Source: a virus
Strand: one strand, 5' to 3'
Virus record (IMG/VR): IMGVR_UViG_3300043548_000722
Location: 1 to 64,000 of that record
Length of the DNA: 64,000 nucleotides
Shown here: piece by piece, positions 2,295 through 36,923 of the stretch
Numbering within the stretch: the stretch's first letter is position 1
How the letters are laid out: each line of letters begins with the position of its first letter
Position numbers and translations under genes: made by a program
The notes under the pieces: model-generated
The model's database searches: none
The model's input: the letters and a program-made list of their open reading frames with translations, nothing else
What the model was told of the DNA's origin: nothing

Positions 2295-2774
2295 TTAGCT
2301 CCTCAAGGAGGATCGCATGAGGCCCGCAGTCCCCAGCCCGACACCAGTTCCAAAGAGGGCCGCAAATGCTTTCGGGTTCTCCTTCTCAAGCTCTGCGATC
2401 TTCCGGTTGATTTCCAGAAACTTTTTCTTATATTCTGGCGTAATATCACCCACACTGTCCGCCTGGTTGTACTGTGCCTCTGTAACTAAGTTCTTACGCT
2501 CTCGTTTTGTCAGTCCAGACTCGTTGGGAGCAGTCCCCTTGTAGGTGAGGACTCCAGCAGGCACGCCCGTCAGCAACGCAGCAGCTCCGGTAATCGTACG
2601 GTTGTCTCTGATGAAGTCCTTCAATTTATGGAGACGGCGCGCGCTGGCCGTCTTCTCAGCACCACGAAGCTCTGCCCAGTACTCGACAGCAGCAAGCTGG
2701 CGCTCCATAGGAGATGCCGACTTCCACAGAGCGTCCGGAATATCCGAATGGGGATTGGTAAATAGATCTTCCAC
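2295..2774 (-). CDS. KxAS-motif glycine-zipper protein
   Basis: Track ORF 2295..2807; likelier start is GTG 2774 (SD GAGG). Has KSAS and EKTAS followed by two Gly-rich hydrophobic segments. Confidence 0.6.
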   Translation of the reverse strand: MEDLFTNPHSDIPDALWKSASPMERQLAAVEYWAELRGAEKTASARRLHKLKDFIRDNRTITGAAALLTGVPAGVLTYKGTAPNESGLTKRERKNLVTEAQYNQADSVGDITPEYKKKFLEINRKIAELEKENPKAFAALFGTGVGLGTAGLMRSSLRS

Positions 2775-2781
2775 GGAAGCC

Positions 2782-3282
2782 TCAGAAGTTCGAGAAGTAG
2801 ACGCCATTGATGACGAAGTACTCAGACTCTACACCACCGCCTTCGAAGGCGTACTCTACGTTCAGCGAAGACTTCACCCGCATCTTCTTTTGTTCGTAGG
2901 AATTGCGGAGCATCTGAATCCAGCCCATCAAGAACTGAGACTTGTCAGACACCGAGACGGAGATTCCTCCGTCCGAGTAGTTCATCTGGTTCCGCAGCTG
3001 AAGGAGTCCGACTGATTCCAGAATGCGAATGACTGCCGCCTCCCTCAGCATGCTGAGGGAGGGGAAGTTCTTGAGCCCTACATTCCCAATGAACGGTGGA
3101 GTCGAGTTGTAGTCGTCGATGGCGTCCACAACTGCCCACGCGATCATGCGATCGCTGGTCTCCTCGCCAGAGATCAGACGATTGAGTTCGGGGAAGTCGC
3201 GCAGGTAGAGGCGAATCATCGCCACGACCTCGTTCATCCTCTTGCTCGCCGAGGGAATGACTGTAGTGCTCTCAAAGGACAT
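2782..3282 (-). CDS. putative head-tail adaptor protein
   Basis: 166 aa helical protein (IRLYLRD...YSDGGISVS) with the size and position of an adaptor after the MCP. Confidence 0.55.
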   Translation of the reverse strand: MSFESTTVIPSASKRMNEVVAMIRLYLRDFPELNRLISGEETSDRMIAWAVVDAIDDYNSTPPFIGNVGLKNFPSLSMLREAAVIRILESVGLLQLRNQMNYSDGGISVSVSDKSQFLMGWIQMLRNSYEQKKMRVKSSLNVEYAFEGGGVESEYFVINGVYFSNF

Positions 3283-3749
3283 CAGTCTCTCTCCTCAAAG
3301 TCCGTTCCGCGCTTGGCCCACCGGCGAAGCCAGAAGAAGGACTCCGGGTTTACCTGCACGCCGTCCTTGAAGATCGCACGAGACAGCAGGATGGCCAGCA
3401 TCTGCGGTCCAGGCGACTTGTTGAACACAAGAGGAGGGGAGATCTGCTGACACAGCCCGAGAAGATCCTCCTTCTCCAGTGTGCGCAGATACGCCAGCGC
3501 CTCATCCTGCGTCATCGGCGTCGTGGTCACCTGTAGATTGCGAAGCGCACTCTTGCTCGTCGAAGTGAACTTCGGAGGAAGCGTGCGTCCGATCCACAGG
3601 TGCGACCCGTGCAGCTTACGGACCTTTTCGCTGATGTCCCCTTCGGGGATCTCAGAAAACTTGCCGGGGCGGATGAGAGTGTTGCCCACGCAGATTGCGG
3701 TCGGGAGGGACGCGGTGTTCGGCCGGTCACTGATGTTGTGGACGATCAT
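3282..3749 (-). CDS. hypothetical protein (morphogenesis region)
   Basis: 155 aa ORF coupled to both neighbours. Confidence 0.55.
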   Translation of the reverse strand: MIVHNISDRPNTASLPTAICVGNTLIRPGKFSEIPEGDISEKVRKLHGSHLWIGRTLPPKFTSTSKSALRNLQVTTTPMTQDEALAYLRTLEKEDLLGLCQQISPPLVFNKSPGPQMLAILLSRAIFKDGVQVNPESFFWLRRWAKRGTDFEERD

Positions 3750-4389: not shown

Positions 4390-4392
4390 ACG

Positions 4393-5523
4393 TCAGAAGA
4401 CGTTGATGTTCGGGAAGGTCAGGCCCTCAGCGACCTTGTTGTTGAGCGCGCCGATGGCGCTCTCCTCAACAGGGATGACCGACGTGGCGCTGGCGTCTGT
4501 CGCATCGCCCGGGTAGAGCTCGAGCTTGACGACGGCGGCGATGTTGCCAAAGCCCATGCCGACGTCCATCCAGGCCTGCCAGAAGATGCGGTTCGCGACC
4601 TTGTCGATGTAGAACTTCACGTCGTTCAGCGTGTAGTTCCGGCCGAAGAACTCCGGGGCCGTGAAGACGTAGACGTTCCCCTCGCGGAGGATGTCGTTCT
4701 TGATGGTCCGGATGATCCGAAGGCCCAACACCTTGTTGTAGGTGTAGCCATCGAGCGCCGTCTCGCTCTGGAGACGATCGCCGTAGTCCTCGTGGGTCCA
4801 CTGGTCGAAATCGTCCGCATCGCTCTCGGTCATGAGCATCAGAGCGGGCCGCAGGCGGCCAGCGCGGATGGTCTCACTGCCGACGACGATCTGGCGCTTC
4901 AGGAGCTTCTTGATGTTCACGATGTCAGCGCGCTGAATCGCGTACACGTCGAAGTCCGTGGCCGAGCCGCCCGACTGGGTCGCGAGAACGCCCTTGATCT
5001 TCGAGACGGTGAGCTGGCCACCGGCGACAGAGAAGGCAGCAGAGCCAGAGTTGCCCTCGGCCTGCATGGCGTTGACGCAGGACTCGACGTGGTTCAGGAA
5101 CTCGCGATCCTTCACCTCGACCATGTCCTTGAGGCTGTTCTCCTCGATGATGCGCGTGATGGGCATCTCGTAGGCCATCAGCTCCTGCTCAACGATCTCG
5201 AACTTGAGGGACGAGATGGTGAAGAAGGAGATGGCGTACCGCTTGCCATTCACGTACTCAGCCGTCGGCTGACCGCGGAAGTTCACGGCCATCGCCCGGG
5301 AGCCCGGCTCAATGTCCACGATCTTCACGAGCGTGTCATGCTCGGTGGAACGCTGAAGGTCGCCACGCACAACACGCTCGTTCGGAACGATCATGTCGGC
5401 GAAGCTGGACTCGCGGAGGCGGTCCTTGATGTAGTTGAGAGAGGCGGCTGCGGTCTTCGTTGGACCCTCGGTCTCGAGGCGCTCAATGAAGCCCGAGTTC
5501 ACCATATCTGCGGAGTAGTCCAT
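4393..5523 (-). CDS. major capsid protein (HK97 fold)
   Basis: 376 aa with strongly biased codons, SD AGGAG, followed by a terminator. Gene order is protease-scaffold-decoration-MCP. Confidence 0.8.
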   Translation of the reverse strand: MDYSADMVNSGFIERLETEGPTKTAAASLNYIKDRLRESSFADMIVPNERVVRGDLQRSTEHDTLVKIVDIEPGSRAMAVNFRGQPTAEYVNGKRYAISFFTISSLKFEIVEQELMAYEMPITRIIEENSLKDMVEVKDREFLNHVESCVNAMQAEGNSGSAAFSVAGGQLTVSKIKGVLATQSGGSATDFDVYAIQRADIVNIKKLLKRQIVVGSETIRAGRLRPALMLMTESDADDFDQWTHEDYGDRLQSETALDGYTYNKVLGLRIIRTIKNDILREGNVYVFTAPEFFGRNYTLNDVKFYIDKVANRIFWQAWMDVGMGFGNIAAVVKLELYPGDATDASATSVIPVEESAIGALNNKVAEGLTFPNINVF

Positions 5524-6154: not shown

Positions 6155-6520
6155 TTACTCGCCAGTGAGGCAGAAGGAAGTGAGGGGGTCAAGAGCCGAC
6201 CTGCCAGGACGGTCCGATAGATCAGCGATGCGAACATTGCCCGCGCTCGCCATCTTCACAGCCTCCCTGACGTTCTCAAGCTGCGCATGACCCCGGAGAT
6301 GCGCAATCTTCTCATCGAACGTCATGTGGGCGTTGAGGCCCTTGTCTTCCATCTCACGCGCGAGCTCAGCAACCTGAGAGTCGCGTGCAATAGAAGCAAG
6401 CTTTGTGCGGAGCTGGATGTTCTCCTGCTCCAGGCTCGCGACCTTTTCGGTCAGCGAGCGAATGGCAGCAGCACCTTTTGCGGAGACTACAGCCAGTTCT
6501 GCATGTCCGATCTTGAGCAT
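6155..6520 (-). CDS. putative scaffold protein (coiled coil, three KxAS)
   Basis: Start reassigned to ATG 6520 (SD GAGG). Coiled coil LTEKVASLEQENIQLRTKLAS, plus KMAS; sits just before decoration and MCP. Confidence 0.5.
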   Translation of the reverse strand: MLKIGHAELAVVSAKGAAAIRSLTEKVASLEQENIQLRTKLASIARDSQVAELAREMEDKGLNAHMTFDEKIAHLRGHAQLENVREAVKMASAGNVRIADLSDRPGRSALDPLTSFCLTGE

Positions 6521-6534
6521 TGCAGTCCTCGCGG

Positions 6535-7131
6535 TTAAAACTTTCTGAGTAGTTGGTCCAGTCGAGCCTGCCTCGCCTGGGATTCTGTCATCTGCATTGG
6601 CGAAGATGCAACCTTCGCGTGGGGAGATTGTAGCGGAGAAGTAATCGCTTCGCAAACGCCAATTAGAGCTTGTTTCACATGGGAGCCTAAATCTCCGGAG
6701 TCGATGTGATCGAACAGAACTGAGTACTCCGCGAGAGATGCTGACTTGTTTAGAGAGTGTGTAGTCCTGTTCATTTCATCGCTCACGTTCTCTGCCTGAA
6801 TAGGTAGCACTTCAGATCCGAGACGATAGTTAGGGTCAGGGCGCCTAAAGATTAAGTCTTTAAGAGACCTGTACCGCGCTCTTCCTGGATTTAGAGAGTC
6901 CAGCGTTCTCGACAGCGCCTTACCCGCGCGAAGTCCGTAGTGGCCTTCCGGAGAAGATGGTGCAGTCGACCCTACAAACCCGTGCTCACCTTCAACTTGC
7001 GCTTTGTAGGCGTCAGCACGATCGCCCTTTCCCATCGAGAAAAGAACGCCATCTCCGATATCGTGATAAAGGCGATCCTTATCCTCGTAGAAGACTGGGG
7101 CGGCGGCATGTTTTTTACGAGACGGGCTCAT
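6535..7131 (-). CDS. KxAS-motif head-region protein
   Basis: 198 aa; NKSAS, VKQA, AKVAS. Confidence 0.55.
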   Translation of the reverse strand: MSPSRKKHAAAPVFYEDKDRLYHDIGDGVLFSMGKGDRADAYKAQVEGEHGFVGSTAPSSPEGHYGLRAGKALSRTLDSLNPGRARYRSLKDLIFRRPDPNYRLGSEVLPIQAENVSDEMNRTTHSLNKSASLAEYSVLFDHIDSGDLGSHVKQALIGVCEAITSPLQSPHAKVASSPMQMTESQARQARLDQLLRKF

Positions 7132-7171: not shown

Positions 7172-8410
7172 CTACTCTCCTCCCTGGACGCCCTCTGCCT
7201 GCATCTGCCTAAGACGATCTGCCGCCGAACGCTTTCTATAGAGGTGGGCTCCCACTCCCGCCGCTGTAGCGAGCCCGGCGGCGCCTGCGGCCAGCCCAAG
7301 GTTTCTGCGGGTAAGGAATCTCCCCATTCCCTGGTTCGGAGCAGCGTCCATTGATCGCCCGAGTGTTTCCGCAGCCTCCACCGGCGCAGAGCTCATATCC
7401 ACAGCAGCTGCTGGCACCGACGCCGGCGCAGAGCTCATATCCACAGCAGCTGCTGGCACCTCCGGCCATCCAGGCCTGCCAACCCTGCCTGGAATGTACC
7501 TTTCCGATGGATGAGGAGGTATCTCAGCAGGAAACCCCTCCATTTGGGCGAACAGGTCGGGATCATTTTTAGCTATCTCATCCATTGCCTCGTCGAAGGC
7601 CAGTCTACCACTATCGGGGCTGCTCATGAGCCAATCTACAATTTTCTCTCTCTTGTCCGCTGGCAGCCGATTTATGTTGTCCGGAGTCATCCTCTTCTTC
7701 ACTCTAGCTGCCGCATCTTTCAGGTGCCCCATCCGAGCCGCGAGAGGGAAGATCTGCGCTGCGCTCGCATCGCCGAGGGTATCTCCCACATGTGCGAACG
7801 CCTCTGCAAGCCGAGCTCTCGTAGACTTCTTCAAGTTACGCTTGTTTGCAAGGACAGGCCCTTCGTTTGAATGCAAAGTAGCCCGGTAGGTTGAGTTTTC
7901 GTTAGCGGACGTAACTCCGGACAGGGTTTCCGCGTCGGATTCCGCAGGGCCGCCAACACCAGCGGTCTTATTGTTCATCAGGATGTCGTAGAGAGACTGG
8001 CCACCCGCTTGCTTAAACGATTCCCGTAGCGGCTTCTCGCCGTCACGAGTGTTTGCCGTCACGGAGCCGCTGACAGGGCTATTACCCGTGACCAGGCCCT
8101 TCGGTGCAATCCGAGTCTTCCCTTCTGTCGGCGCTACGCCTTGGACTCCGCTGGTAGAGGTGGCGCCCTGTGCGGGACTTGCCATGGCGCTCTTGTAGAA
8201 GTCCCTAATCATTTCCTGACGAAATCCGTCTGCCCGGTTTCCACCCGTTGCACTCAGAGAAACGAACTCGAGCGCACTTGCGACCTCCTGTGCCTCCTTG
8301 ACCAAGGAGGAGCCGGGGCGGGATGCAGTCTTCTCGGCTTCAATCGCCGTGTGGGAACGCGCACGAGCAGCTTCTAGGGCTTGGTCAATCATGCTTCTGT
8401 AGTTGCTCAT
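7172..8410 (-). CDS. KxA-motif head-region protein with C-terminal glycine-zipper segment
   Basis: 412 aa; EKTAS, KEA, KSA, KQA, KTA, KDA; C-terminal LGLAAGAAGLATAAGVGAHLYRKR. Confidence 0.65.
   Translation of the reverse strand: MSNYRSMIDQALEAARARSHTAIEAEKTASRPGSSLVKEAQEVASALEFVSLSATGGNRADGFRQEMIRDFYKSAMASPAQGATSTSGVQGVAPTEGKTRIAPKGLVTGNSPVSGSVTANTRDGEKPLRESFKQAGGQSLYDILMNNKTAGVGGPAESDAETLSGVTSANENSTYRATLHSNEGPVLANKRNLKKSTRARLAEAFAHVGDTLGDASAAQIFPLAARMGHLKDAAARVKKRMTPDNINRLPADKREKIVDWLMSSPDSGRLAFDEAMDEIAKNDPDLFAQMEGFPAEIPPHPSERYIPGRVGRPGWPEVPAAAVDMSSAPASVPAAAVDMSSAPVEAAETLGRSMDAAPNQGMGRFLTRRNLGLAAGAAGLATAAGVGAHLYRKRSAADRLRQMQAEGVQGGE
7381..7460. repeat. tandem duplication, 42-nt period (38 nt identical)
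   Basis: ccggcgcagagctcatatccacagcagctgctggcacc at 7381 and 7423; encodes VPAAAVDMSSAP twice. Confidence 0.95.
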
Positions 8411-8752: not shown

Positions 8753-9733
8753 TCAGATGTTGTAGCCGGCCATGCGGAGAAGCTGGACTGCGCGGGCGTC
8801 GACAAACGCCGACGACTGCTTCTCAGCCTCAGAAGGAGCCTCTTCCGCAGGCGCCTGCATGGCCTGCAAACGAGCCTTGCGGCGATCGTACAGCTTCTTG
8901 CCGCCGTAGACGCCCGCAGCCGTCAAGCCGGTGGCGCCTAAGCCGAGACCGATCTTCTTGCCGAGGCCCATCGACGAGGGGGCAGCCTTGGCGGCATCCG
9001 CCACTGCATCCGCCGCATCGGCTGCGGCGGCTGCCTCTTCGGCAACCTTCATGCCGACGTCAAAGCCGTAGACACTCGCGATCTTGACCAGTGCCGCAAG
9101 GTTTAGTGCAGACGACTGCTTCTCAGCTTCAGAGGATGTTTCCTCAGCATCAGCCTGCATAGCAGCTTTGCGCGCCTTGCGGCGATCGTACAGCTTCTTG
9201 CCGCCGTAGACGCCCGCGGCCGTCAAGCCGGTGGCGCCTAAGCCGAGACCGATCTTCTTGCCGAGGCCCATAGGAGGCTTTTCTGCGATCTTCTGGATCT
9301 CATCGGCATATGCACGAGCCATGTGACGACCAAGAATCTCTGCTTCAGCGAGCTTCTCGTGTGCATCCTGGACCATGGCCTCCTTGTCCTGACCCTCAGC
9401 CTCTGCAAGCTGTTCCGGGAGAACATTCTCGACGTAGTGATTGAAGAGCTGAGCCAGCTCTGCATCACTCATGTCGTCTAGATCGATGCCTTCGGCAGAA
9501 GCGGTCTTTTCGAAGAGGTCGATAACTTCGTTGTTCATGGCAGATGCCTCTTTGGTGGACGGGGCGGAACGGGAAACGAACTGGTTGAATAGAGATGTGA
9601 CCTGTGTTTCGCTCAGATCATCGAGGTTTACACCCTCGGCGGCGGCGGCTTTCTCAAAAAGGCGAACAGAAGCTGCTTTTTCGAGATCTTCTGCCGTGAT
9701 GCCCCGGGTTTGTAGTTCTGCGAGTAGAGACAC
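8753..9733 (-). CDS. KxAS-rich head-region protein with a duplicated glycine-zipper module
   Basis: 326 aa; KAAS, KEAS, KTAS, KIAS, two EKQSS; two copies of MGLGKKIGLGLGATGLTAAGVYGGKKLYDRRKAR. Confidence 0.75.
   Translation of the reverse strand: MSLLAELQTRGITAEDLEKAASVRLFEKAAAAEGVNLDDLSETQVTSLFNQFVSRSAPSTKEASAMNNEVIDLFEKTASAEGIDLDDMSDAELAQLFNHYVENVLPEQLAEAEGQDKEAMVQDAHEKLAEAEILGRHMARAYADEIQKIAEKPPMGLGKKIGLGLGATGLTAAGVYGGKKLYDRRKARKAAMQADAEETSSEAEKQSSALNLAALVKIASVYGFDVGMKVAEEAAAAADAADAVADAAKAAPSSMGLGKKIGLGLGATGLTAAGVYGGKKLYDRRKARLQAMQAPAEEAPSEAEKQSSAFVDARAVQLLRMAGYNI
8811..9271. repeat. internal direct repeat, 300-nt period
   Basis: 8874..8971 matches 9174..9271 (98 nt, one mismatch); 8811..8827 equals 9111..9127. 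Confidence 0.95.
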
Positions 9734-9743: not shown

Positions 9744-11639
9744 CTAGGTGTGAATAGAGGGGGCGTCTTCGGGAGTGGATCCCTCAGCCTCGTGAGCCAA
9801 TCCTAATCTAAGACCGGGCCAGTAGGCAACATGCAGCATGATGTTTGATAGCGCAATCGCATCATCTGCAATTTTTACATCGTCTTCGATCCGGGGCGCG
9901 AAGGCTCCTGGGACCGATACGGCACTCAAGTCAGGCTTATTATCGATCAAGCCCAGTCTGTACGCGTTGTAGAGATCCGCGATCTCCTCTAATCCGTCTA
10001 CTTCTTCCGGTTCCTCTATCGGAGGCGGGGACACTCGGATCACCATGCGAGCGCGCATGGCTGATGGTGCAAAAGACCGGCCTTGAAGAAGCGGGCTGAG
10101 TAGATTGATCATCGCGCTCATCGCATCCTCCGGAACAAAGGAGGCTGCATTGAAGGGAGATGATGACATACGAATAGGACGCTGTGCGAAGACCTGATTG
10201 TTTTTGTATAGATCGTCCGCTAAATCTGGGTCCTTGCGAACGATCATCACCCGCATGAACTCGCGCGGGCGGAGAACGACCCCAAGCCTTGCTGCCGCGC
10301 GAAGATTGGGTCCAGGGTTCTCTGCAATCGCATCGAGCACATCGCGAGGAAGCTCAGGTAGGCACATCTCCTCTTTGCGCACCAAACTCATCTGAGATGC
10401 AGAGGGAGCAGGGATGCGCTTTAGCATCTCTGCAACTTTGGAAAACGAAGCAACCTTCACACCGAACAAATCGTCAACACGATTATTGAAAAGAATCTTC
10501 AGATGTGTGATCTGCGAAGGGAGGACTCCGTATCTCCTTTGGAAAACTCTATTAGAAACCTCTTTCCACAAGTTAAACTCTGCTGAAGTCAGCGTTCCCT
10601 GTACCAGGCGCTCCTCTGCCAGCCTCTCCTGCATGTAATAGCGGAGAGCCTCTCTCTCCAACGAGGATGACGTTGGAATGGTGGACAGCGCGTGCGACAG
10701 TCTTTCTTCAAGGACGTGGTCCGGGATCTGAGGAGCTTCCGGCGCAGGAGCACTCGCTGTCTTCACGACAATAGGCTGAAAGGGGTAAATCGTCTGCGAG
10801 TACGCGTTTTGCCCACGCACCAGCGGGGTTACGTTGGACATCAACTTTGCGGAACGCTCGGCTCCGACAAACACGAAAGAGTCATCAAAGAATCTTGGAT
10901 AGTCATTGTAGACGCCGCAGACCCGGCCATCGGGCAGCATCGCCTTCATGCCATACGGAGGAGGGGCACCCCGCTGGACGTGCTTGCAGTATTCCATCGG
11001 CGTACGCGCAATGTGCCCGCAAATCGAGCATCGATCGTAGGGGACCTTGCTGCCCATACTCGAGTCTGGAAACTCTCCGGCCTCGATTCGAGAGTAAAGA
11101 TCCATGGCGCCCTGCTGAGCACACATCTCTCGAATCAACTCGGACACTAGGATGACGCGCTTCATGCGGTCGTCCCAGAATGCACCTAAGATGAAGCCGT
11201 ATGCTCTATTGGGATCTTTGTTGATATGATGCCGGAAGCGGTGCGCGTTATAGAACGTCGGGTAGCCCCAGGTGAGAGATCCCCACTGTGGGAGGGCTTC
11301 TGTTTGGTTTGCAGCGCGCCTTCGGGCGTCGATGTCCCACACGGGAATCTGCTCAAAACCCGGAGGTGTCCGGCGCAGCCCCGCCTCGGTGAACCAGTCT
11401 CCGCGTAGGTTGAACCCTACGCACTCGCCTGCCCCTAACGCCGAGTTGACCAGATAGAGACGACCAGGCTGGGCCTGGATCGACTCAATCAGCTCAATCA
11501 CTTCGGGAAGGTGCTCTCCAGAGGCAGTCTTCGCAAGTCCATCTGTCTCGGATAGTCCATACGACGAGCCGGGCTCTACTCTGTGGATCAGAGGAGAGCC
11601 GGACTCAGACTTTCCAGAAAACAGCGAGTACTTTTCCAT
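9744..11639 (-). CDS. prohead maturation protease (HK97/assemblin-like) with Zn-finger insert and C-terminal extension
   Basis: HRFRHHINKD (candidate His), GFILGA, SSMGSKV (candidate Ser), CSICG...CKH insert, FFDDSFVFVGAE; upstream of scaffold and MCP. Confidence 0.7.
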   Translation of the reverse strand: MEKYSLFSGKSESGSPLIHRVEPGSSYGLSETDGLAKTASGEHLPEVIELIESIQAQPGRLYLVNSALGAGECVGFNLRGDWFTEAGLRRTPPGFEQIPVWDIDARRRAANQTEALPQWGSLTWGYPTFYNAHRFRHHINKDPNRAYGFILGAFWDDRMKRVILVSELIREMCAQQGAMDLYSRIEAGEFPDSSMGSKVPYDRCSICGHIARTPMEYCKHVQRGAPPPYGMKAMLPDGRVCGVYNDYPRFFDDSFVFVGAERSAKLMSNVTPLVRGQNAYSQTIYPFQPIVVKTASAPAPEAPQIPDHVLEERLSHALSTIPTSSSLEREALRYYMQERLAEERLVQGTLTSAEFNLWKEVSNRVFQRRYGVLPSQITHLKILFNNRVDDLFGVKVASFSKVAEMLKRIPAPSASQMSLVRKEEMCLPELPRDVLDAIAENPGPNLRAAARLGVVLRPREFMRVMIVRKDPDLADDLYKNNQVFAQRPIRMSSSPFNAASFVPEDAMSAMINLLSPLLQGRSFAPSAMRARMVIRVSPPPIEEPEEVDGLEEIADLYNAYRLGLIDNKPDLSAVSVPGAFAPRIEDDVKIADDAIALSNIMLHVAYWPGLRLGLAHEAEGSTPEDAPSIHT

Positions 11640-12184
11640 TACGGGGCGAGCATTGCAGAGAGTGGCATGGCAGTGCTCTTGGCGCCGGCCTGTCTTGCGG
11701 CATCGACAGCGGGATTTCCTCTCGATTGGATGCTCTGAAGAAGAGCAGGGTCGAACCGCGGCGGGCTTGTCGGGTCGTCTGGATCCATACGGTTTGTCAT
11801 AACCATATCTAGAATCGTACCGGCAATAAGCGGATCTTTAGAATATTCTGGGTTAACACTTCTCAGAGTCTTAAACGCCATGCGGAGATTCGGATCCTCA
11901 GGCGATCCCAGCTGCGGATTAACTGCGACAACCCTGCGTAGGTCTCGGTTAAACATTAGTGCAGATTCCGCACTCTGTAAAGCTTCCGGTATCTGAGCAC
12001 CAGCGTACGAGAGCGTCGGAGCTGCTACAAGTAGCCCGCCAAGACTGGCCAGAGACTGTGGACTAATATTGAGGGCGGTCTTGCTCATGTCAGACGCCAT
12101 CTTCTCCAGTCCCAGAAGTTCCGAATGACTCAGCTCTCCGCGCGCATAGGCAGCGTACGCTTCTGTAGGAACTCGAACTGTCAT
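11639..12184 (-). CDS. KxA-motif protein with a hydrophobic segment
   Basis: 181 aa; LEKMASDMSKTA followed by LASLGGLLVAAPTLSYAG. Confidence 0.65.
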   Translation of the reverse strand: MTVRVPTEAYAAYARGELSHSELLGLEKMASDMSKTALNISPQSLASLGGLLVAAPTLSYAGAQIPEALQSAESALMFNRDLRRVVAVNPQLGSPEDPNLRMAFKTLRSVNPEYSKDPLIAGTILDMVMTNRMDPDDPTSPPRFDPALLQSIQSRGNPAVDAARQAGAKSTAMPLSAMLAP

Positions 12185-13299
12185 TCTCCACCCCCGTCGT
12201 CAATTAGGGTTGACTTTTTGGACTTCTGCCGGACCTTATAAACACCATATGCCGCAGCTACTGGTAAACCTGCCCCGACAACGTATTTTAAGGCAGTAGA
12301 GGGAGACTTTGCAACCATCTTCCCTATCATCATTGCACCGCGAACAGCAGCAGCTGGAGCCTTACTCACAATCTTGCCTAGCCCAGCCGTCTTTTCACCA
12401 AACAGAGACTCTGTCAGTGCCTTGTTTGCATACTCAAGATCGGCCTGAATATCGCGCAACGCGATCTCAAGGTGAATGTGCCGCTCCTCCACCGCCGCCA
12501 CCTTTGAGAATGAGGCAGGAAGTGGGTGCGCCGGATTAATCTCTCCGAAGGACGCGGTCTTCGTCAGCCGAAGCCCAGCAGTCGTCCGCTCCTTTCCAAG
12601 CAGGTACGCCGAGAGATCTGATGCGACCTTGGTCGCGGTCTCCTGGGATGTGGAGCTCCAGTCTGTGCCCTCGAAGCAGGCATGAAGAACGTCCTCTACG
12701 GACACGCCGTCCTTCACTGCGGCGTAGGCCTCTTTGGATAGCTCGCGCCTCGCGGACATGATCTCCGTATCGAGCGATCTGAGTTCCGCAGTCACCGCGG
12801 CTGATGCCTCTTTCAAAGAGTCATGGATCTTCTTGAGATCATGAAGGCCCTGTGCCTGCGCAAACGGAGCACTGTAGTCGGTGTCCGACGCAGACTTCAT
12901 CAGCTCGTCAAAGGCATTAGCTGCTTTGAACTTCGGGAGTCTCGGCGCGGATGCAGATGCAGTTTTTTCTGTCATAACACCACCGGACAAAGAAGTTGCG
13001 CGCTTAGGCGCCGATGCGACCTTCTCCGCGCGAAGAACCTCGGCTGCGACTTCTGCATCCGGAGGGTCGAAGACGATGTACCGATCGGCGCTGGAAGCCT
13101 GCTTGTGCATCCGCTCGTAAGTGTCGTGGTACGTCATCTCGCAGATACGCCGAACATGCTCAGCTGTCAAGTTTGCGCCACAGGCACTTGCCTGCTTGAT
13201 TACGGCCTCTGTCAGCGGAGTACCTCTGGACAGGAAGTCCGAGGTCGCCGCATGAGCGAGACCTTGGAGATACTCTTTGGTGATCGGACTGCCGTACAT
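12181..13299 (-). CDS. KxAS-rich head-region protein (eight KxAS)
   Basis: Start reassigned to ATG 13299 to avoid overlapping the divergent HTH gene. KQAS x2, KVAS x2, KTAS x2, KSAS, KEAS; hydrophobic tail after GEKTA. Confidence 0.75.
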   Translation of the reverse strand: MYGSPITKEYLQGLAHAATSDFLSRGTPLTEAVIKQASACGANLTAEHVRRICEMTYHDTYERMHKQASSADRYIVFDPPDAEVAAEVLRAEKVASAPKRATSLSGGVMTEKTASASAPRLPKFKAANAFDELMKSASDTDYSAPFAQAQGLHDLKKIHDSLKEASAAVTAELRSLDTEIMSARRELSKEAYAAVKDGVSVEDVLHACFEGTDWSSTSQETATKVASDLSAYLLGKERTTAGLRLTKTASFGEINPAHPLPASFSKVAAVEERHIHLEIALRDIQADLEYANKALTESLFGEKTAGLGKIVSKAPAAAVRGAMMIGKMVAKSPSTALKYVVGAGLPVAAAYGVYKVRQKSKKSTLIDDGGGE

Positions 13300-13317
13300 C
13301 AGAAACCTGGAGTGGGA

Positions 13318-13989
13318 ATGAAGTACTCGATGAGTATAGCCGACGCGGGACGCGTCCTCGGCAAGACAGAGAGAACTATCCGAAACTACATCAAGACGGG
13401 ACAACTTACAAGTACTGGTAGCGGAAGATCTCGACTACTGGATCCAGAAGAAGTCCACGAGCTTCTTGCCGCCCCAAAAGGAGAGAGGATTACTGTAGCC
13501 GAGATCCGCACCCTTCGCGCAACAGTGCGGCGTCTTGAGTCCGAGGTTGCAGTCATCCAGCACATGCTGGACCTGCGGAACGAAAGTCTTGGAATGACGA
13601 GTCAGTACGCGAAGGAGCTTCACGCTGCCATGATCGAGCAGTATGGGCGCCCTGCTGGCAGTTACTCCACGACCGAGATGCGGGCATGGGCCGACATCTT
13701 TACACGGATGGATGAGGCCGATCTTCTGACATTCAGCGGTGCGGGGGCTGCATGGAAGATTCTACTTCGCCTGTGCGGACGGATGCTCTCTGAGGTGACC
13801 GCGCATCCAGACTACTCCACGTCTCTTGAGCTTCAGCAGATTCATCGTCTACTGGCAGATGGGCGGCGGAGGTTGAAGATCTCTATCTTCATCTACTTGG
13901 AAAGCTTGAGTGACTCGGCCACGGCATTAGAGCGTACCCTAAAAGAGGACGTGTTTGAGCGTCTAAAAAATGACCTAAAACAGTCATAA
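13318..13989 (+). CDS. HTH DNA-binding protein (excisionase/MerR-like HTH plus coiled coil)
   Basis: Track ORF 12823..13989; likely start 13318 (SD GGAG). MSIADAGRVLGKTERTIRNYIKTGQL is an HTH_17-like pattern. Confidence 0.75.
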   Translation: MKYSMSIADAGRVLGKTERTIRNYIKTGQLTSTGSGRSRLLDPEEVHELLAAPKGERITVAEIRTLRATVRRLESEVAVIQHMLDLRNESLGMTSQYAKELHAAMIEQYGRPAGSYSTTEMRAWADIFTRMDEADLLTFSGAGAAWKILLRLCGRMLSEVTAHPDYSTSLELQQIHRLLADGRRRLKISIFIYLESLSDSATALERTLKEDVFERLKNDLKQS

Positions 13990-16215: not shown

Positions 16216-16224
16216 GATTTCTCC

Positions 16225-16232: not shown

Positions 16233-16270
16233 AATTTTGCTCACGATGAGCATAAGGGGGTTTCGACATC

Positions 16271-20051: not shown

Positions 20052-21554
20052 TCAAACTTGATACGTTTTAAGGCTCTTCAGTCCTGAGATGACATCTTCG
20101 AGCGCGAACATAGCACGAACAGCTGCGGTCTTGGGGATGCTTTGCAGGCCGATCTGAGCCGCAAGCACCACGCTCGCCAACTTGGTCGATGCCTCCTCTA
20201 ACTGAGGAAGGAAGTCGATGAAGGTCTCGACGTTCTCCGGGTTGAGGAAGTTTAGCGCAAGAACTGCGTCTACAGAAGCAGTGTCTACAAGTGCCGACGC
20301 CTTCTTATCAAAAGTAATCGCAGAAATCTCCCTCAGCAAGTTAACACGCTGAGGAATCTCTGTATCAAGCATGTCGATTGCTGCTTCCTTGAGAGCCTCA
20401 TGGTAGGTCTCGTCGCGCGTAGAGAGCGGCTGAAGACCAAACATGCGGATCGGCTTACCGGAAGACGCGGCCTTCTCTAGACACGCAGCACTTAGGTTCT
20501 GTGGCATGCCTGCGGCAGCGAGCCAGAACACGCCGTCCACCCAGTCGTGCTCACCCGAGCCAACCTTCTCAAAGACCGGTCCGCTGAGGCGGCAGCCACC
20601 TTCCCATGCGCGAATCTCGGCCATTGTCTCGTATGCGTTGGCCTGTGCTGCCTTCATCAGCTCATTTCCGGCAGCAAGCTGCACTGGGTTCTCCAGCGGC
20701 ATGAACTTGAAGTCTGCGGGAATAGCGATGTCAGTGGTCGAGGATGCGACTGGGCGCACTATGCCCTGTGACGGAATGATGCGAATATCATTTCCATTTA
20801 GATCCTGCGCAGCAAAATACCCGTTGCCTTCGACGTGGACCTTCGTGACGATATTGTATGGCATCGTACACATAATAGCCTTGCCGTTGGTCTTAAGGAA
20901 GACGCCAAGGCCACGTACGTCCGGATTTTCTGGAATTGGTAAGTTGTGGTTTACACCAATGAGAGATCCAGAAATCATAGGCTGAACAGAGTATGCTGTT
21001 CCATTAGTGAACAGCGCGGCACTGGTAGGTGCTCCCTGAACAGGATCAAAAAGGTTGGGAATTACGTATCCCACCAACTGTTTTCCAGTGGTCGCGTCTG
21101 TCACCTTGTAGATGCCAAATGCCGTTACCGGAGCCATCTGCTCTGTCAAAGGATCCGGCTCTGCCTGAACCCCAGTGATTGTTGCAGCTCCGGTCTGATC
21201 TGCCGTCTGTAGCATCTGAGGGGGCAGTACTTGCTGAGCTTGCTGAGCAGACATCTGCGTCTCTTGCGGAGCCATGCCCGCAGGAGCTGCAGAAACCTTC
21301 ACGGAGTAGCCATACCCAGACGGGCGAACCTGAACTACGTCGACCCCCGGCATGAAGCGCAAAGAAGCACTCTTCGCCAGCTCTGACGCGGGAACGATTG
21401 GCTCGGCAGTCAACCTATGAAGAACGCTCATTACGGACGCGTTCTTCTCAATCATACGCCGCACCTCCGGGTCTGCGAACTCGCCCTCAAATCGCGCGAA
21501 GTCAGACTGGTTGATGGTTCCAGAAATGGCAGAACAGAGCGTGCGAGGTTTCAT
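20052..21554 (-). CDS. KxAS-rich virion-region protein
   Basis: 500 aa; KNAS, KSAS, KAAS, KKAS, KLAS. Confidence 0.7.
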   Translation of the reverse strand: MKPRTLCSAISGTINQSDFARFEGEFADPEVRRMIEKNASVMSVLHRLTAEPIVPASELAKSASLRFMPGVDVVQVRPSGYGYSVKVSAAPAGMAPQETQMSAQQAQQVLPPQMLQTADQTGAATITGVQAEPDPLTEQMAPVTAFGIYKVTDATTGKQLVGYVIPNLFDPVQGAPTSAALFTNGTAYSVQPMISGSLIGVNHNLPIPENPDVRGLGVFLKTNGKAIMCTMPYNIVTKVHVEGNGYFAAQDLNGNDIRIIPSQGIVRPVASSTTDIAIPADFKFMPLENPVQLAAGNELMKAAQANAYETMAEIRAWEGGCRLSGPVFEKVGSGEHDWVDGVFWLAAAGMPQNLSAACLEKAASSGKPIRMFGLQPLSTRDETYHEALKEAAIDMLDTEIPQRVNLLREISAITFDKKASALVDTASVDAVLALNFLNPENVETFIDFLPQLEEASTKLASVVLAAQIGLQSIPKTAAVRAMFALEDVISGLKSLKTYQV

Positions 21555-23266: not shown

Positions 23267-24352
23267 TCAATCCGCTTCGAGGACTGACGACAGAAAGGAG
23301 CCTTGTCCGGCGAGCGAGTCTACAATATCACTAAGAAGGTCATCCGTCGCAGCTGTCGTAAATCCGAGTGTGTTAAGGGCGACCTTGATCTCAGTAAGCG
23401 ACGCTTGAAGCTTCGTCAGGAACTCTGTCCCAAGCATGACGGGCTGAGCCGTTCCCGCATCTGTTTCCTGCGCGATCCGAAGTTTACCATCCAAGGTTAG
23501 GAGGGCGCTGCCGGATCTCGCGACTTTCAGAGAAAGAGATTGATCCGGGACATCTGCTTCCTCATCGGAGTTGACCTCGAATAAATATACACAAGCGGCA
23601 GGATCGAGAGAAGACGGACGGAGGGCAATAACATCTTCAGGAATTAAGCCCAACAGAGGGTCTTCTATATAAAGCGTCGTTTGCTGTGAAGAAAGTGCGG
23701 GGATTGGGACACTGCCGTCTAGCTCTACTCGATCGGCCTCGGTAAACCCAACTTTACTGCGCACAGACCACGACGGGGACTGGGCAAATTCTCGAACGGT
23801 CGTTTCGTAGTAGAACGCCGGAAAGAAGGTTCCGGCGTCTTCGCTATCAATACAAACTTTTTCCTCGGTGGAGCCGATTGTCTCGACGATCATGTGGCGC
23901 GCGACCACCGTGAGGGTGTCCGTTCGACCCTCTGCCACTATCCGGGAAAGGCCGCTTCCTCGCAGTTCAGTAGTACCGTTTCTGGTAATAAATACTCCAT
24001 TCTGTCCCTCTGCTACGCAGGCCATATCTCCGGGACTAAGGTATGGACGATTTGAGTGGTATGATCCAGGCTTACCGTCCGTTGTGACGGACGAAACCAG
24101 AGGCGCCCCAGCGATTAAGTACGCCCCAGAGTGGTCAGAAGATACCGCCACGAGACAGTGGGATCCTACCTCCGGCATGTAGTGCAGACCGGCGCCGGTC
24201 GCGCTCTGGTACACAGAAGATATGATCCCTGTTACAAATTCTCTCTGAACCTGATCACACCTGACGACACAGGTCCACCGAGAAGGATCGACAGATATAA
24301 TCCTCCCAGAGAAAATTTGTGCGTCAATGGGCTTACGCGGAAAGCTGCTCAT
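23267..24352 (-). CDS. putative baseplate spike (gpV/gp5-type OB fold)
   Basis: GRIISVDP...GLHYMPEVGSHCLVA OB-fold pattern, beta-repeat middle, VMLG-x2-FL-x2-L C-terminal helix. Confidence 0.6.
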   Translation of the reverse strand: MSSFPRKPIDAQIFSGRIISVDPSRWTCVVRCDQVQREFVTGIISSVYQSATGAGLHYMPEVGSHCLVAVSSDHSGAYLIAGAPLVSSVTTDGKPGSYHSNRPYLSPGDMACVAEGQNGVFITRNGTTELRGSGLSRIVAEGRTDTLTVVARHMIVETIGSTEEKVCIDSEDAGTFFPAFYYETTVREFAQSPSWSVRSKVGFTEADRVELDGSVPIPALSSQQTTLYIEDPLLGLIPEDVIALRPSSLDPAACVYLFEVNSDEEADVPDQSLSLKVARSGSALLTLDGKLRIAQETDAGTAQPVMLGTEFLTKLQASLTEIKVALNTLGFTTAATDDLLSDIVDSLAGQGSFLSSVLEAD

Positions 24353-24858
24353 TGATTCGGACGTCTATTCTTTAGGGCGTTGTACCCTAAATAACCTGTC
24401 CCCAGGGCACCCGCACCCGCTGTAGTAAGGGCCGCCCCACCCAGCAGTTGCTGTCCCTGCGTTCTCGCCACGTCGAGCTGTCTCAGCGAAACGGGACCAA
24501 GACCCCGTTCTGCCGCACGCTGGTTAACATTAGCAAGTAGTCTGTCTGTAGCTCCGCTCGTCAGTTTGCCTCCCCTACTGGAAGCCCAGTCCATCATGCG
24601 GCCACCAAGACCAGTCCGAGAACCTGAGACACCCGCACCTCCCGCACCTGCAATTGCTTTACCAGCACGGTAAACACCTCCAGTTACGGCCTTGCCGACA
24701 TCTGCAAGAAGGGCCTCCTTTTCCATTTCCATGAATGCTTGCGCGTATGGAGCAGGGAGCTGTCCATCGCATGTTCCGTACCTCTCGACGAGAACAGATG
24801 CCCTCTTTTCGAGTTCATTGCGGAGTAGAGCTTCTTGGTAGGCGGCGATCTTGTCCAT
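24349..24858 (-). CDS. MDKIAAYQ-leader glycine-zipper protein
   Basis: MDKIAAYQ...ELEKRAS...MEKEA followed by a Gly-rich amphipathic/hydrophobic region; directly downstream of the RNAP. Confidence 0.7.
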   Translation of the reverse strand: MDKIAAYQEALLRNELEKRASVLVERYGTCDGQLPAPYAQAFMEMEKEALLADVGKAVTGGVYRAGKAIAGAGGAGVSGSRTGLGGRMMDWASSRGGKLTSGATDRLLANVNQRAAERGLGPVSLRQLDVARTQGQQLLGGAALTTAGAGALGTGYLGYNALKNRRPNQ

Positions 24859-31994: not shown

Positions 31995-34031
31995 TCAGCC
32001 GATTGCTCTTCCTGGGTCAGCCTGTGGCGTTCCGTTAGGTGCCGGATTTTGCTGCGCGTTGAGAGGATCGATCTGCGAGCCGCGGTCATTCATTAGTTGG
32101 ATAACCAGCTGATACAACGGAGGATTCTCCATCTGCATTTGCTGAAGAGCTTGATACATGGCTTCTTCGCCCTGTTCTTTTTTTAGCATGCGTAAGAACG
32201 ATGCTGCGCGCTGCGCGATGTACCGCAGGTCCACACCCCCTGACCCAGGCTGGATTGGTGACTGGGCAGACGCCATAGCGGCGGGCATTCCATCCTGATT
32301 CGGAGTGGCCGCATTCTCATCGTAGGCGGTAGCTCCTTCTGGAAGCCCAGGAGTTTGCTGAGCCTGATCTCCAGCGGGTCCCTGCTGAGCGGCCGGGTCT
32401 TGCGGCATTGCGCCCTGCGCTTGCTGCTGTGCGGCAGCCTGCTGCGCTGCCTGCTGCATCTCCATTTGTACCTGGCCCTGTGCGCGCATGGTCAGGGCCT
32501 GCGCCTTGGCTTGGTAGCGTGAGGTCCGAAGCTGGGCTTCTCCCTGAATATCTGCCGAAGCGACCTGCATGCGGCGATTGGACTGAAGCTGCTTCTTGAT
32601 CTCTTCGCGCATGCGCTCCGACTCGAGATCGAAATCCTCCCCAAGTTCTTCCATGAGGCGATGATCGCTGATCTTCTGAGCCTGGTTGAGTTGGAGGTAG
32701 AACATGCTTCTTTGCAAGTCATCAGCCATACGGAACTTGTCGAATCTCGACGAGACCTTGGGCCACTCCATGAAGGAGGCAATCTTACCCATGATGAAGA
32801 CGTTGATCAGCTCGTGGCGCTGCTTGTTGTACCCCAGGAACATGTTTTCCAGTGCCCGGAGCGAGGTACTCGATCCAGACCACTGGAGTCCTCCGAAGAT
32901 GAACTCCACAGGAATGCCGGCGCCAGCAAGCATCTGCTCAGCCAGAAGACGCATCTCTTGGTACATCAACAGGGCGCGACCTTGTCCACCGATCTGCTGG
33001 AATCCGATGTTGACAGGAAGGACCGGGATGTAGTTGTGATCCCGCTTCCACATGTTGATTTCTTCATCTACCCGACGTTTCCAGTTCGTCAGGTTGTAGG
33101 CCCCGTAGGGCCCCTCGTTGCCTCCAGTGTTCTGGCCCGGGAAGATCATCCGCATGGGAACGATGTTCTCCATGAGGATTGCCTCGTTGGCCTTCTTCAT
33201 GACCTGGAGGTAGAACGCATCCTTCAGAAGCGGGAAGATCAGGGGCGTGCCCCAGCCTTGATCCTTCTGGGCGATCGTCGGTCGCTTCAGATGGTAGAGG
33301 TTGTCCTCCGAAAAGAGGAGTGACTTGTTCGCGCGGGCGGCTTCAAGGAACTCGAGGGGAAGCGACTCAATCTCGTCGCAGTCTCCAAGTTTGATGTCGT
33401 TGATCACGCTCTTGGGTAGGCGGAAGTAGTACTTGGTCTTTCCAGTAATCTCGTTGTGCTTGATGTCGATGTTCTCTGGATTCCACCGAACCAGGCGAAT
33501 CTGGCGGAAGCTCCGAACGTAGACATCGTGCTGCTTCGCGTAGCCCTCGTGGCCACAGTCGCACTTGTGAAGGTAGAAACGAGAGTCACGCCACTTGTAG
33601 CGGAATCTGTTGGTCTTGGCACGGTAGCGTGCGCCGCAGGAAGCACAGATGAGGTACTTCTCGAACGGCAGGAACACCGAGACAAAGGCGTTTCCGTATA
33701 CGAAGTAGTCGAGCCCGACCTCGACCTGAAATGAGCGCAGCTTGAGGTGATCCTCTACCTTCTTATAAAGCTTCATCACCTCCGGGTCGTCTGTCTCAAA
33801 AATAAGAGGGGTGACCGGGTACTCTGCCATTTTGGAGCACGCGGCGTTGATCACCGGATTTGTCAAGAAGTAATACCGGCACCACTTGTGTAGTTCGTGC
33901 TGATTAGATGGAAGGAACTGCTGAGAGATGTCAAAGAACGGCGACGGATAGCGAATGCCGAATCCTCGGCCACCCTCAGTGGTGACTGGCCTCGGATTAA
34001 AACGGTTTACTTCGCTGGTAATGACGTTCAT
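31995..34031 (-). CDS. portal protein with Zn-ribbon insert and Gln/Ala-rich C-terminal extension
   Basis: YFLTNPVINAACSKMAEYP, DYFVYGNAFV, RWNPENI, LYHLKR...GWGTPL and AGIPVEFI are portal-like motifs. Confidence 0.85.
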   Translation of the reverse strand: MNVITSEVNRFNPRPVTTEGGRGFGIRYPSPFFDISQQFLPSNQHELHKWCRYYFLTNPVINAACSKMAEYPVTPLIFETDDPEVMKLYKKVEDHLKLRSFQVEVGLDYFVYGNAFVSVFLPFEKYLICASCGARYRAKTNRFRYKWRDSRFYLHKCDCGHEGYAKQHDVYVRSFRQIRLVRWNPENIDIKHNEITGKTKYYFRLPKSVINDIKLGDCDEIESLPLEFLEAARANKSLLFSEDNLYHLKRPTIAQKDQGWGTPLIFPLLKDAFYLQVMKKANEAILMENIVPMRMIFPGQNTGGNEGPYGAYNLTNWKRRVDEEINMWKRDHNYIPVLPVNIGFQQIGGQGRALLMYQEMRLLAEQMLAGAGIPVEFIFGGLQWSGSSTSLRALENMFLGYNKQRHELINVFIMGKIASFMEWPKVSSRFDKFRMADDLQRSMFYLQLNQAQKISDHRLMEELGEDFDLESERMREEIKKQLQSNRRMQVASADIQGEAQLRTSRYQAKAQALTMRAQGQVQMEMQQAAQQAAAQQQAQGAMPQDPAAQQGPAGDQAQQTPGLPEGATAYDENAATPNQDGMPAAMASAQSPIQPGSGGVDLRYIAQRAASFLRMLKKEQGEEAMYQALQQMQMENPPLYQLVIQLMNDRGSQIDPLNAQQNPAPNGTPQADPGRAIG

Positions 34032-35050: not shown

Positions 35051-35053
35051 AGT

Positions 35054-35842
35054 TCACCTCAGCTCGGCAGTGTAGCGGAAGAGGGCATCGACGGCCTCAT
35101 ATAGTTTTACCGCGCATATATCATCAGCAGTTTCTAGAAGGGTCGGGTTCTTTTTACTTAGAAGAGCGACCAGGGTCCTCTGCACGCCCGCAGTTGGAAG
35201 CTTAGTGACAATCTTTACCTTAGACCCATTAAACTTCTTTCGAAGCCCCTCGTCTGGCTCCATCTTCAATAGACTGTCCGTGTTGTATCGGTCTGTGCAG
35301 TAGCTACAGAGGCCATCCTCTTTTGGCTCCTCTTCATTTCCGCACTCTCCGCAGACCTGTGTGGTCTTCGAGATCAGAGGATTTAAAAACTCCAGTGGCT
35401 CCGGTACGTACCAGATTCCCGACTCATGGAGCTGCGCGGCCATATACCGCCGGACCTCCTCCGCAAATAATGGAATGTCTCCGAGGGTCCCTAAGTCCAA
35501 TCGGATTCTGTTAGCCGCATCTACGGCCAACATAAGGTCAGAGACTGACTGGTTATCAATATGTGAAACAGATGGGATCTTACCCACAAGGGCCTGAGAG
35601 ACTGTGTGGAACGTTTCCCAGCTCTTCCAAAACATGTCGTGGTTGGCAACCGAAATGGCCGCCAGTAGCTTCATGAGCACGACACGGGGGATGTTGAGTT
35701 TCAGGCGATCCTCAACAGACCTTTTAACGACAAAAGGTTCCCACTCCAACGCTCTTGGGCCGAAGAGAGAAAGGTAGCCACGAAGCAAGGAGAGAGGATG
35801 ACTCTTCTCGTCCTTGAATACCTGGATATCAGTACCCACCAT
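35054..35842 (-). CDS. hypothetical protein with Zn ribbon
   Basis: 262 aa; CGECG...CSYC. Confidence 0.65.
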   Translation of the reverse strand: MVGTDIQVFKDEKSHPLSLLRGYLSLFGPRALEWEPFVVKRSVEDRLKLNIPRVVLMKLLAAISVANHDMFWKSWETFHTVSQALVGKIPSVSHIDNQSVSDLMLAVDAANRIRLDLGTLGDIPLFAEEVRRYMAAQLHESGIWYVPEPLEFLNPLISKTTQVCGECGNEEEPKEDGLCSYCTDRYNTDSLLKMEPDEGLRKKFNGSKVKIVTKLPTAGVQRTLVALLSKKNPTLLETADDICAVKLYEAVDALFRYTAELR

Positions 35843-36923
35843 TGTTTGTATCTCTGGACTGCGAGGCCATACGGGACAGGAGGATCTGCTGCTCTAGCGG
35901 CATCTTCTTGAATGTGCCAATCGGATCGCTCTTGAACCGCGACACTACGTCCTCCTCAAAAACATCTTGCAGCGCAGTGTGTGCGGCGGTGCTACCGGCA
36001 TATCGCATCAGCATGGAAGCCGTGACGTAGTCGCCTCCGTGAACCCAGGAATACTCAGCCTGCTTTTCCGTGCCAAAAACTGTGAGTACGGGGTCAGGGA
36101 TGTTCTGGCCATAACGATTTAGGAGTCCAGCACGCTCGTCCATCAGGAAGAGCGCCTCGACGACATCGTCTGGATCGAGCGCCGCCGCCATCTTGGCCAG
36201 TCGAAGGTAGTCTTCCTGGTACGCGGGGTTGGCTGTGTACTCTGCGCGACGAGAAGCAACCTTCTCAAAGCGCGGGTTGAGTGTGGTCCCGCTGTAACGG
36301 AAGATGTGATCCGGGATCTGCGCACCGATGTCGCTTGCGACCTTCACAATGTCGACTGCGGCCTCGTGCCGATCGTACGGATCGAGGTCATCCCATGCCT
36401 CAACGAGGGCCGAGATCGCATCAAAGGCAGACGCAGTCTTCTCATGCCTACCCAGCGGCACAGACATGCCCTTTCCAAGAGGACGCATGATCTGCGACGG
36501 CTCGTATGAGGCGGTTTTCGCGTACTGCGTAGCGGCAGACGCCGCCTTGATCAGTACGCGGCGTCCGTCCCCGGGAAGATCGTCTCCCTCATTGGCAAGG
36601 ATGGTCAGTGCCGGGTGAGAGGCGAGTCCGAGTGCGTCGGCCGCATCGAGAAGATTGGCCGCGGCCACCTTGACCGCCCCGCTGGGCAGGCCGTGCTCTG
36701 CGTTGAGCAAGTACCACTGCGAGAGAAAGGTGTTGCCCGCGTCATGGCACGCAAACTTGCGATGCTCCTTGCCTTGGCTGTCCATGATGATGAGCGCGAA
36801 GTCACGGTCATACAGATCGTCACGCTCCTTCCAGGATGCCGTCTTGAGGAACTCGACGCCGCTCTTGGGTCCAGTCGTGCGAAACAGCTCTCCGAGGTCG
36901 TCATGATGGTCGACTACAGCCAT
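35829..36923 (-). CDS. KxAS-rich head-region protein (six KxAS), first gene of the structural unit
   Basis: SD AGGAG; KTAS x3, KVAS x2, KAAS. Confidence 0.75.
   Translation of the reverse strand: MAVVDHHDDLGELFRTTGPKSGVEFLKTASWKERDDLYDRDFALIIMDSQGKEHRKFACHDAGNTFLSQWYLLNAEHGLPSGAVKVAAANLLDAADALGLASHPALTILANEGDDLPGDGRRVLIKAASAATQYAKTASYEPSQIMRPLGKGMSVPLGRHEKTASAFDAISALVEAWDDLDPYDRHEAAVDIVKVASDIGAQIPDHIFRYSGTTLNPRFEKVASRRAEYTANPAYQEDYLRLAKMAAALDPDDVVEALFLMDERAGLLNRYGQNIPDPVLTVFGTEKQAEYSWVHGGDYVTASMLMRYAGSTAAHTALQDVFEEDVVSRFKSDPIGTFKKMPLEQQILLSRMASQSRDTNNGGY

Follow-up and report, generated by a model that had tools for sequence, protein, structure and literature searches.

The head genes of the IMG/VR virus record IMGVR_UViG_3300043548_000722 are marked by a short peptide motif, K-x-A-S, which probably acts as the cleavage code of a prohead protease encoded among them (9744..11639, minus strand). 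The window analyzed here is the first 64 kb (64,000 nucleotides) of a single 107,650-bp contig from an uncultured phage. Its virion module extends from ~37 kb down to 0.3 kb, with nearly all real genes on the minus strand, and we refer to the 33 minus-strand open reading frames (ORFs) of 2295-36923, totaling 10,991 amino acids (aa), as the head block.

Enrichment of K-x-A-S in head proteins

A first-pass annotation had reported about 38 exact copies of the motif (hereafter KxAS) in 12 named genes, and 38 were confirmed ORF by ORF, over a total of 4,066 aa. Further single sites in the ORFs at 8420, 31238, and 31995 bring the whole head block to 41, against 4.4 expected from the composition of each protein, i.e. 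~9 times chance (Poisson p ~1e-25). The proposed enrichment also held against shuffled controls and in comparison with the rest of the genome: over 2,000 shuffles, the head block had on average 4.5 KxAS (standard deviation 2.1) and at most 12, while all other ORFs of the genome (23,685 aa) included 10 against 7.0 expected, which is chance level, with five of these ten in two genes outside the window (92115-95879). The single sites in 8420, 31238, and 31995 are probably due to chance, and the lysine of the 8420 site is without conservation in orthologues. Among all 2-4-residue and gapped patterns compared in an unbiased scan, KxAS ranked first in the head block (p ~1e-25), followed only by its own sub-patterns (EKxxS, KTAS, KVAS, and EKxA), and no comparable pattern was detected outside the head block by the same scan. 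K-x-A itself occurs 114 times in the head block vs. 62 expected, and 93 times elsewhere vs. 94 expected. The virion RNA polymerase (RNAP; 2,116 aa) has no KxAS, and with only 0.86 expected a test for avoidance has no power.

No two of the 41 sites share a 12-mer, and serine codons of both families are used; the constraint therefore acts on the peptide, as had been proposed from codon differences between copies. An origin of the motif through DNA repeats or duplication was considered and rejected, since the 12-mers all differ and lie in unrelated proteins. The 12 genes are listed below by coordinates, with conservation given among orthologues from 15 IMG/VR loci (protease identity 61-88%).

2295..2807, minus strand, small head-block protein: two KxAS, both only partly conserved and thus weaker sites
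6155..6655, minus strand, coiled-coil scaffold-like protein: three KxAS vs. 0.09 expected; two genes upstream of the capsid gene, with 5552-6142 between
6535..7131, minus strand, head-block protein: two KxAS, with K, A, and S of site 173 invariant in nine sequences
7172..8410, minus strand, head protein: one KxAS, the N-proximal KTAS27, plus three KxA[AG]; K and A invariant in 10 orthologues
8753..9733, minus strand, modular acidic head protein: four KxAS, four KxA[AE], and two KQSS
9744..11639, minus strand, prohead protease, 631 aa: three KxAS; PHROG 18299 head maturation protease, E = 1.5e-4
11639..12184, minus strand, head protein: one KxAS, the N-proximal EKMAS at residue 28; E, K, and A invariant, next residue S, E, or D
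12181..13404, minus strand, head protein, probably scaffold/core-like and mostly disordered: eight KxAS vs. 0.45 expected (p = 3e-8), plus two KxA[AG]
20052..21554, minus strand, 500-aa head-block protein: five KxAS vs. 0.17 expected, plus two KxAA
21642..23270, minus strand, 542-aa head-block protein: two KxAS, one N-proximal at residue 22
24349..24858, minus strand, small protein: MDKIAAYQ start and one KxAS, KRAS18
35829..36923, minus strand, first gene of the portal operon: six KxAS vs. 0.14 expected (p = 9e-9), plus three KxA[AE]

Form, conservation, and position of the motif

Across 30 alignable sites, identity to this genome was 0.85 for K, 0.57 for x, 0.89 for A, and 0.70 for S, with every flanking position between 0.52 and 0.66. 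Because the proteins carrying the motif are the fast-evolving ones of the module (mean identity 29-60%), the K and A columns stand out, and the alignments show selective conservation of these two residues. The residue after Ala varies (S > A > E > G), so that the core motif is K-x-A and a count of exact KxAS therefore misses sites. The extended consensus is [L/M/F]-E-K-[T/V]-A-S-[A/V], and the same extended preferences were found independently in 345 sites of 150 distant proteins of the protease family described below.

Several sites are N-proximal: K-x-A-[SAG] is found at residues 15-37 in the products of the genes at 2295, 4393 (the capsid gene), 7172, 8753, 9744, 11639, 20052, 21642, 24349, 34028, and 35829, so that at least 10 head proteins, the capsid protein among them, have such a site.

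4393..5523, minus strand, major capsid protein: PHROG 2522 major head protein, E = 2e-4
5446-5457, minus strand, site at K23-T-A25 of the capsid protein, the end of a candidate 25-residue propeptide: N-terminus invariant around KTAAAS in orthologues

The KTAAAS noticed early on near the capsid N-terminus lies at residues 23-28 of the 4393-5523 product and is invariant in 8 orthologues; the protein is 27% identical to gp226, the major capsid protein of Salmonella phage Arash (E = 2e-27).

A prohead protease bracketed by candidate sites

The 9744..11639 product is laid out as an N-terminal leader, KTAS37, the protease domain, KTAS293, and a ~330-aa C-terminal extension with KVAS395. In 10 orthologues, K37, T38, A39, and S40 are invariant, as are K395 and A397, and K293, A295, and S296 are nearly so.

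10764..11519, minus strand, protease domain proper (residues 41-292): T4 gp21/herpes assemblin fold in an AlphaFold2 (AF2) model

The AF2 model of residues 1-300 has a predicted local distance difference test score (pLDDT) of 86.4 and a predicted template modeling score (pTM) of 0.80, and its pLDDT falls below 50 only at residues 31-41 and 291-300, i.e. at KTAS37 and KTAS293, which bracket the domain. The top Foldseek rows for this model were all herpesvirus proteases and T4 gp21. In VIA-align comparisons, T4 gp21 (5jbl) had a Z of 9.2 (root-mean-square deviation 3.0, 133 aa), the proteases of varicella-zoster, pseudorabies, herpes simplex, Kaposi's sarcoma-associated herpes-, human cytomegalo-, and Epstein-Barr viruses 8.7-5.9, and unrelated folds at most 5.0. 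The model thus assigns the domain to the assemblin/gp21 beta-barrel fold, i.e. the clan of MEROPS S21, S77, S78, and S80. H138 and S194, the candidate catalytic pair, are invariant in 40 homologues down to ~35% identity.

Searches for Pfam domains at E ≤ 0.1 gave no match for the protease, none of the 40 homologues matched a protease family, and neither the single sequence nor its profile matched a PDB sequence, while PHROG matches were limited to 18299, 2774, and 16951. By fold the protease groups with the assemblin/gp21 enzymes, yet it falls outside every named sequence family, the S77, S78, S80, and S21 profiles being unmatched. Along the minus strand the genes are ordered as large terminase (TerL; 14491), 12181, 11639, the protease (9744), 8753, and, further on, scaffold-like 6155, 5552, and the capsid gene (4393), which places the protease gene in the head morphogenesis module, upstream of the scaffold-like and capsid genes.

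Diversity of motif-bearing head proteins

The sites of the 12181 product are conserved in 10 orthologues. By blastp this protein is a distant homologue of Arash gp220 (E = 3e-4), and the 11639..12184 product one of Arash gp221; a tblastn search of 50,697 phage records with the 12181 product gave no match, and the ESM Atlas offered no usable lead for it (best score 0.77; pLDDT of its own model 0.52). In the 35829 product, 10 of the 17 lysines lie in K-x-A. Module insertions and C-terminal Gly-rich hydrophobic modules seen in orthologues start beside sites. At sites 19, 61, and 76 of the 8753 product, all 10 orthologues share K and A. This protein also includes an acidic module around FEKTA(S/A)AEGIDLD, present in one or two copies among orthologues, and an internally duplicated segment of ~50 residues, Gly-rich, hydrophobic, and basic, each copy of which ends in EKQSS.

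Two of the three sites in the 6155 product have an invariant K and A; the third has an invariant A, with K in eight of nine sequences. The longest ORFs at 6155 and 12181 both start with TTG and, judging from alignments, are probably too long. For 6155 the true start is probably M46, yielding a protein of 121 aa: eight of nine distinct orthologous sequences start at the M46-aligned residue (121-128 aa), and one (L015) keeps the 166-aa form. For 12181 the start is probably M36, an invariant start-aligned Met at which several orthologues begin. These corrections shift residue numbers and leave counts intact.

When the 20052 product was compared with 47 homologues reaching down to 45% identity, 30-47 of them retained K and A at six of its seven sites; at the remaining site 61, only 13 retained K and 36 retained A. 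In the AF2 model (pLDDT 79.7), all seven sites are in the helical parts (residues 1-66 and 338-493) and none in the beta-rich core (73-336); Foldseek searches of the PDB with this model, including the core, returned no convincing match (TM 0.05-0.12). The protein is itself conserved, with at least 153 homologues. The helical location of many of these sites, together with the preference for E before K, would fit a structural or modification motif without proteolysis, such as a helix cap or hinge (E-K-x-A-S), a Lys or Ser modification, or a cross-link. We consider this highly improbable: the motif is present in unrelated proteins and in disordered protease linkers, and helical proteins encoded beyond the head block lack the enrichment. 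The lower conservation of Ser relative to Ala speaks against Ser modification, and no partner kinase or transferase was observed.

Three small minus-strand products that otherwise differ (18865-19416, 19425-19985, and 24349-24858) open with MDK(I/L)AAYQ and have a K-x-A about 18 residues in (KEAR, KTAQ, and KRAS, respectively); their common start may represent a shared leader. Other landmarks of the module are as follows.

14491-16272, minus strand, large terminase: PHROG 675, E = 2e-53
24866-31216, minus strand, fused beta-beta' RNAP in a single 2,116-aa ORF: Pfam Rpb2 domains 6-7, followed by Rpb1 domains 2, 3, and 5
31995..34031, minus strand, portal protein: 31% identity to Arash portal gp204 (E = 9e-93), with a single KIAS416 (one vs. 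0.14 expected)

Protease family and cultured relatives

A phmmer search against 1.84 billion representatives retrieved 2,530 clusters at E ≤ 1e-3 and 1,427 at E ≤ 1e-10, i.e. a family of ~2,500 representative clusters without a Pfam model. The top 150 representatives (mutually ≤50% identical) carry 345 KxAS against 44 expected, gathered near residue 30 and at residues 250-290. When 40 diverse members were aligned, K-x-A was found at the entrance of the domain in 38 and within 70 residues after it in 39, frequently as K-[VIL]-A-S ~10 residues beyond the last strand. In some family members the protease domain is internal, behind an N-terminal part of ~450-500 residues, and some homologues carry cargo-like domains fused behind it, e.g. 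an endolysin, a DarB-like antirestriction protein, or a DNA methyltransferase (PHROG), or an inorganic pyrophosphatase (Pfam).

This family includes cultured phages. Using tblastn, the protease domain was detected in Arash gp222 (33% identity), annotated only as 'structural protein' in its record, as well as in Vibrio phages D69, D148, and D181, Bacillus phage G (gp19), Gordonia phages Stormageddon and RedWattleHog, and Mycobacterium phages Phrappuccino, Settecandela, and Phabba. Near the Arash protease gene, gp220, gp223, and gp225 carry 5, 4, and 2 KxAS, respectively, along with many K-x-A-[AE], and the capsid protein gp226 has KEAG at residue 27. Genes 0268-0273 of Vibrio phage D69 carry 3, 2, 3, 7, 1, and 2 KxAS, and phage G gp19 includes KTAA43, KVAS248, and KIAS274. 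Arash thus resembles the present genome in its protease domain, in its K-x-A-S load, and in the order of portal, RNAP, head-protein, protease, and capsid genes. It differs in being a 180-kb myovirus with a split beta/beta' RNAP (gp206 and gp216), both subunits of which are among its most abundant virion proteins (PMC10585845).

The number of copies per protein, their confinement to head-module proteins, and the detection of the motif-rich Arash gp220 and gp223 in virions at high coverage would also be expected of an uncleaved binding or incorporation tag, bound by the scaffold, the portal, the inside of the capsid, or the protease in the role of an adaptor, with multiple copies providing avidity. 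A tag alone, however, would not account for the bracketing of the protease domain by sites in 38-39 of the 40 diverse members aligned, nor for sites at the borders of modules and, in the capsid protein among others, 15-37 residues from the N-terminus. The enzyme encoded nearby folds as a protease. In T4 and phiKZ, sites of cleavage coincide with targeting leaders, so that tag and cut site are compatible functions, and we regard a tag without cleavage as unlikely.

Cleavage might instead occur at another bond, e.g. after Lys, or be carried out by a host protease or another phage peptidase. The bond is not fixed by these data, and the genome does encode a second peptidase-like domain, the C92-like module of the 96385-99774 product. 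The motif nevertheless co-varies with the gp21/assemblin-fold family in very different phages (~35% identity) and flanks that very domain, and the conservation of positions i and i+2 with a free i+1 is the P3-x-P1 pattern of the characterized enzymes of this fold. We accordingly give this alternative little weight.

A candidate cleavage code for head maturation

Taken together, we consider it probable that K-x-A|S is a prohead-protease cleavage code of the form [L/M/F]-E-K-[T/V]-A|S. The first-pass annotation had proposed KxA|S as the maturation cleavage site of the 9744..11639 product; conservation, the bracketing and N-proximal sites, the fold, and the relatives lend this strong indirect support, while the position of the bond is set by analogy. 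A cut after Ala is predicted because K-x-A, with its free middle residue, fits the P3-x-P1 frame. That annotation had also raised a possible packaging tag and described the motif as defining the internal head proteome, both of which are probably too narrow, since carriers include the capsid protein, the protease, and the coiled-coil scaffold-like protein.

Under this cleavage model, the N-terminal domain of the 9744-11639 product, a Ser/His protease, would recognize K-x-A followed by S or, less often, A, E, or G. Inside the assembled prohead, the protease would cut at its own KTAS37, KTAS293, and KVAS395, shedding its leader and extension, and would remove N-terminal leaders of 15-37 residues from the capsid protein and ~10 other head proteins. 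It would also cut the multi-site scaffold/core-like proteins (12181, 35829, 8753, and 6155) into small pieces and separate the modules of modular proteins. Both the cutting at the motif and the fate of the fragments are inferred here.

Several points weigh against this interpretation. Cleavage is a prediction throughout the family, the scissile bond after Ala is placed by analogy, and the residue following Ala is not fixed. Several sites of the 20052 product are predicted to be inside helices rather than loops, and the capsid protein of phage G has no K-x-A. At the level of the enzyme, Pfam and PDB searches gave no sequence-level match to any characterized protease family, and the equivalence of H138 and S194 to the His and Ser of gp21 is putative. 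Finally, virion mass spectrometry (MS) was reported for Arash without mention of a protease or processing, and its coverage table lists gp220 and gp223 at 96-100%, which neither shows nor excludes cuts (PMC10585845).

A modest excess of KxAS was also observed in a second cluster outside the window (92115-99774; L018:4116-11775), with three and two copies in two genes. The 96385-99774 product is a multidomain protein of 1,129 aa combining an SNF2-type helicase, 41% identical in this part to Arash gp217, with a C92 papain-like module, and gp217 is abundant in Arash virion preparations. The products of this cluster may be packaged polyvalent cargo. More tentatively, and in our view doubtfully, K-x-A could be a combined address-and-cut code shared by this very large protease clade (~2,500 representative clusters). 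Modules located behind a leader or between K-x-A junctions would then be packaged in the head, set free by the protease, and passed on to the host, and this cargo would include the polyvalent helicase/peptidase proteins of 92115-99774 and the domains fused to the protease in relatives.

If the cleavage code is confirmed, Lys-x-Ala|Ser would represent a new specificity within the same fold, resembling the Ala|Ser rule of herpes assemblin, in an enzyme of known kind but new sequence family; our literature search, which covered a limited set of papers, retrieved no report of K-x-A specificity. Mature termini, scaffold fragments, and probably packaged or ejected proteins could then be predicted from sequence for a large, mostly uncultured phage group that includes RNAP-carrying Arash relatives, Vibrio phages, and phage G. 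Should the address-and-cut interpretation hold as well, the ejected proteome of thousands of uncultured phages would become readable from sequence. The enzyme would also constitute an orthogonal sequence-specific protease. Cultured relatives (Arash and Vibrio phage D69) and published virion MS data make this code directly testable.

Comparison with known prohead proteases

To our knowledge, every characterized enzyme of the gp21/assemblin fold recognizes a P3-x-P1 pattern in which P2 is free, and the prohead proteases studied from large phages (T4, phiKZ, 201phi2-1, and SPN3US) all cut after Glu. T4 gp21 (MEROPS S77, PDB 5jbl), the best structural match here (Z 9.2), is similarly encoded in the head module, and in both systems the motif occurs on many head proteins, including capsid, scaffold-like, and protease proteins, follows the P3-x-P1 pattern, and terminates short N-terminal leaders. 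The two proteases share no sequence similarity, however, and the T4 motif is hydrophobic-x-Glu vs. K-x-A-(S) here. A C-terminal extension of ~330 aa and, among relatives, fused cargo domains further set the present protease apart from gp21.

Among the Glu cutters, the T4 enzyme cleaves at L/I-x-E| and that of phiKZ at S/A/G-x-E|, with A-x-E| also used in phiKZ-like phages, and head proteins of both T4 and phiKZ have short N-terminal propeptides (PMC5694885). Like the present virus, phiKZ (gp175) and SPN3US (gp245; MEROPS S80) are large phages with a virion RNA polymerase, and they process many head or ejection proteins and display C-terminal autocleavage of the protease (PMC5694885). Their enzymes differ from the one described here in cutting after Glu and in belonging to another sequence family, the candidate P1 and P3 residues being Ala and Lys, respectively, in this lineage.

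Herpesvirus assemblin (MEROPS S21) cleaves an M site, (V/L/I)-x-A|S, and an R site, Y-(V/L/I)-(K/Q)-A|S. This phage departs from the herpes consensus (V/L/I)-x-A|S: P3 is Lys, as the counted motif requires, and 85% of orthologue residues retain it, whereas the herpes P3 is aliphatic, and the candidate substrates are far more numerous here. The two systems nevertheless share the fold (Z 8.7-5.9) and an Ala-Ser at the center of the motif, and the R site of the herpes protease-scaffold fusion, like KTAS293 here, comes straight after the protease domain and is followed by a long C-terminal extension.

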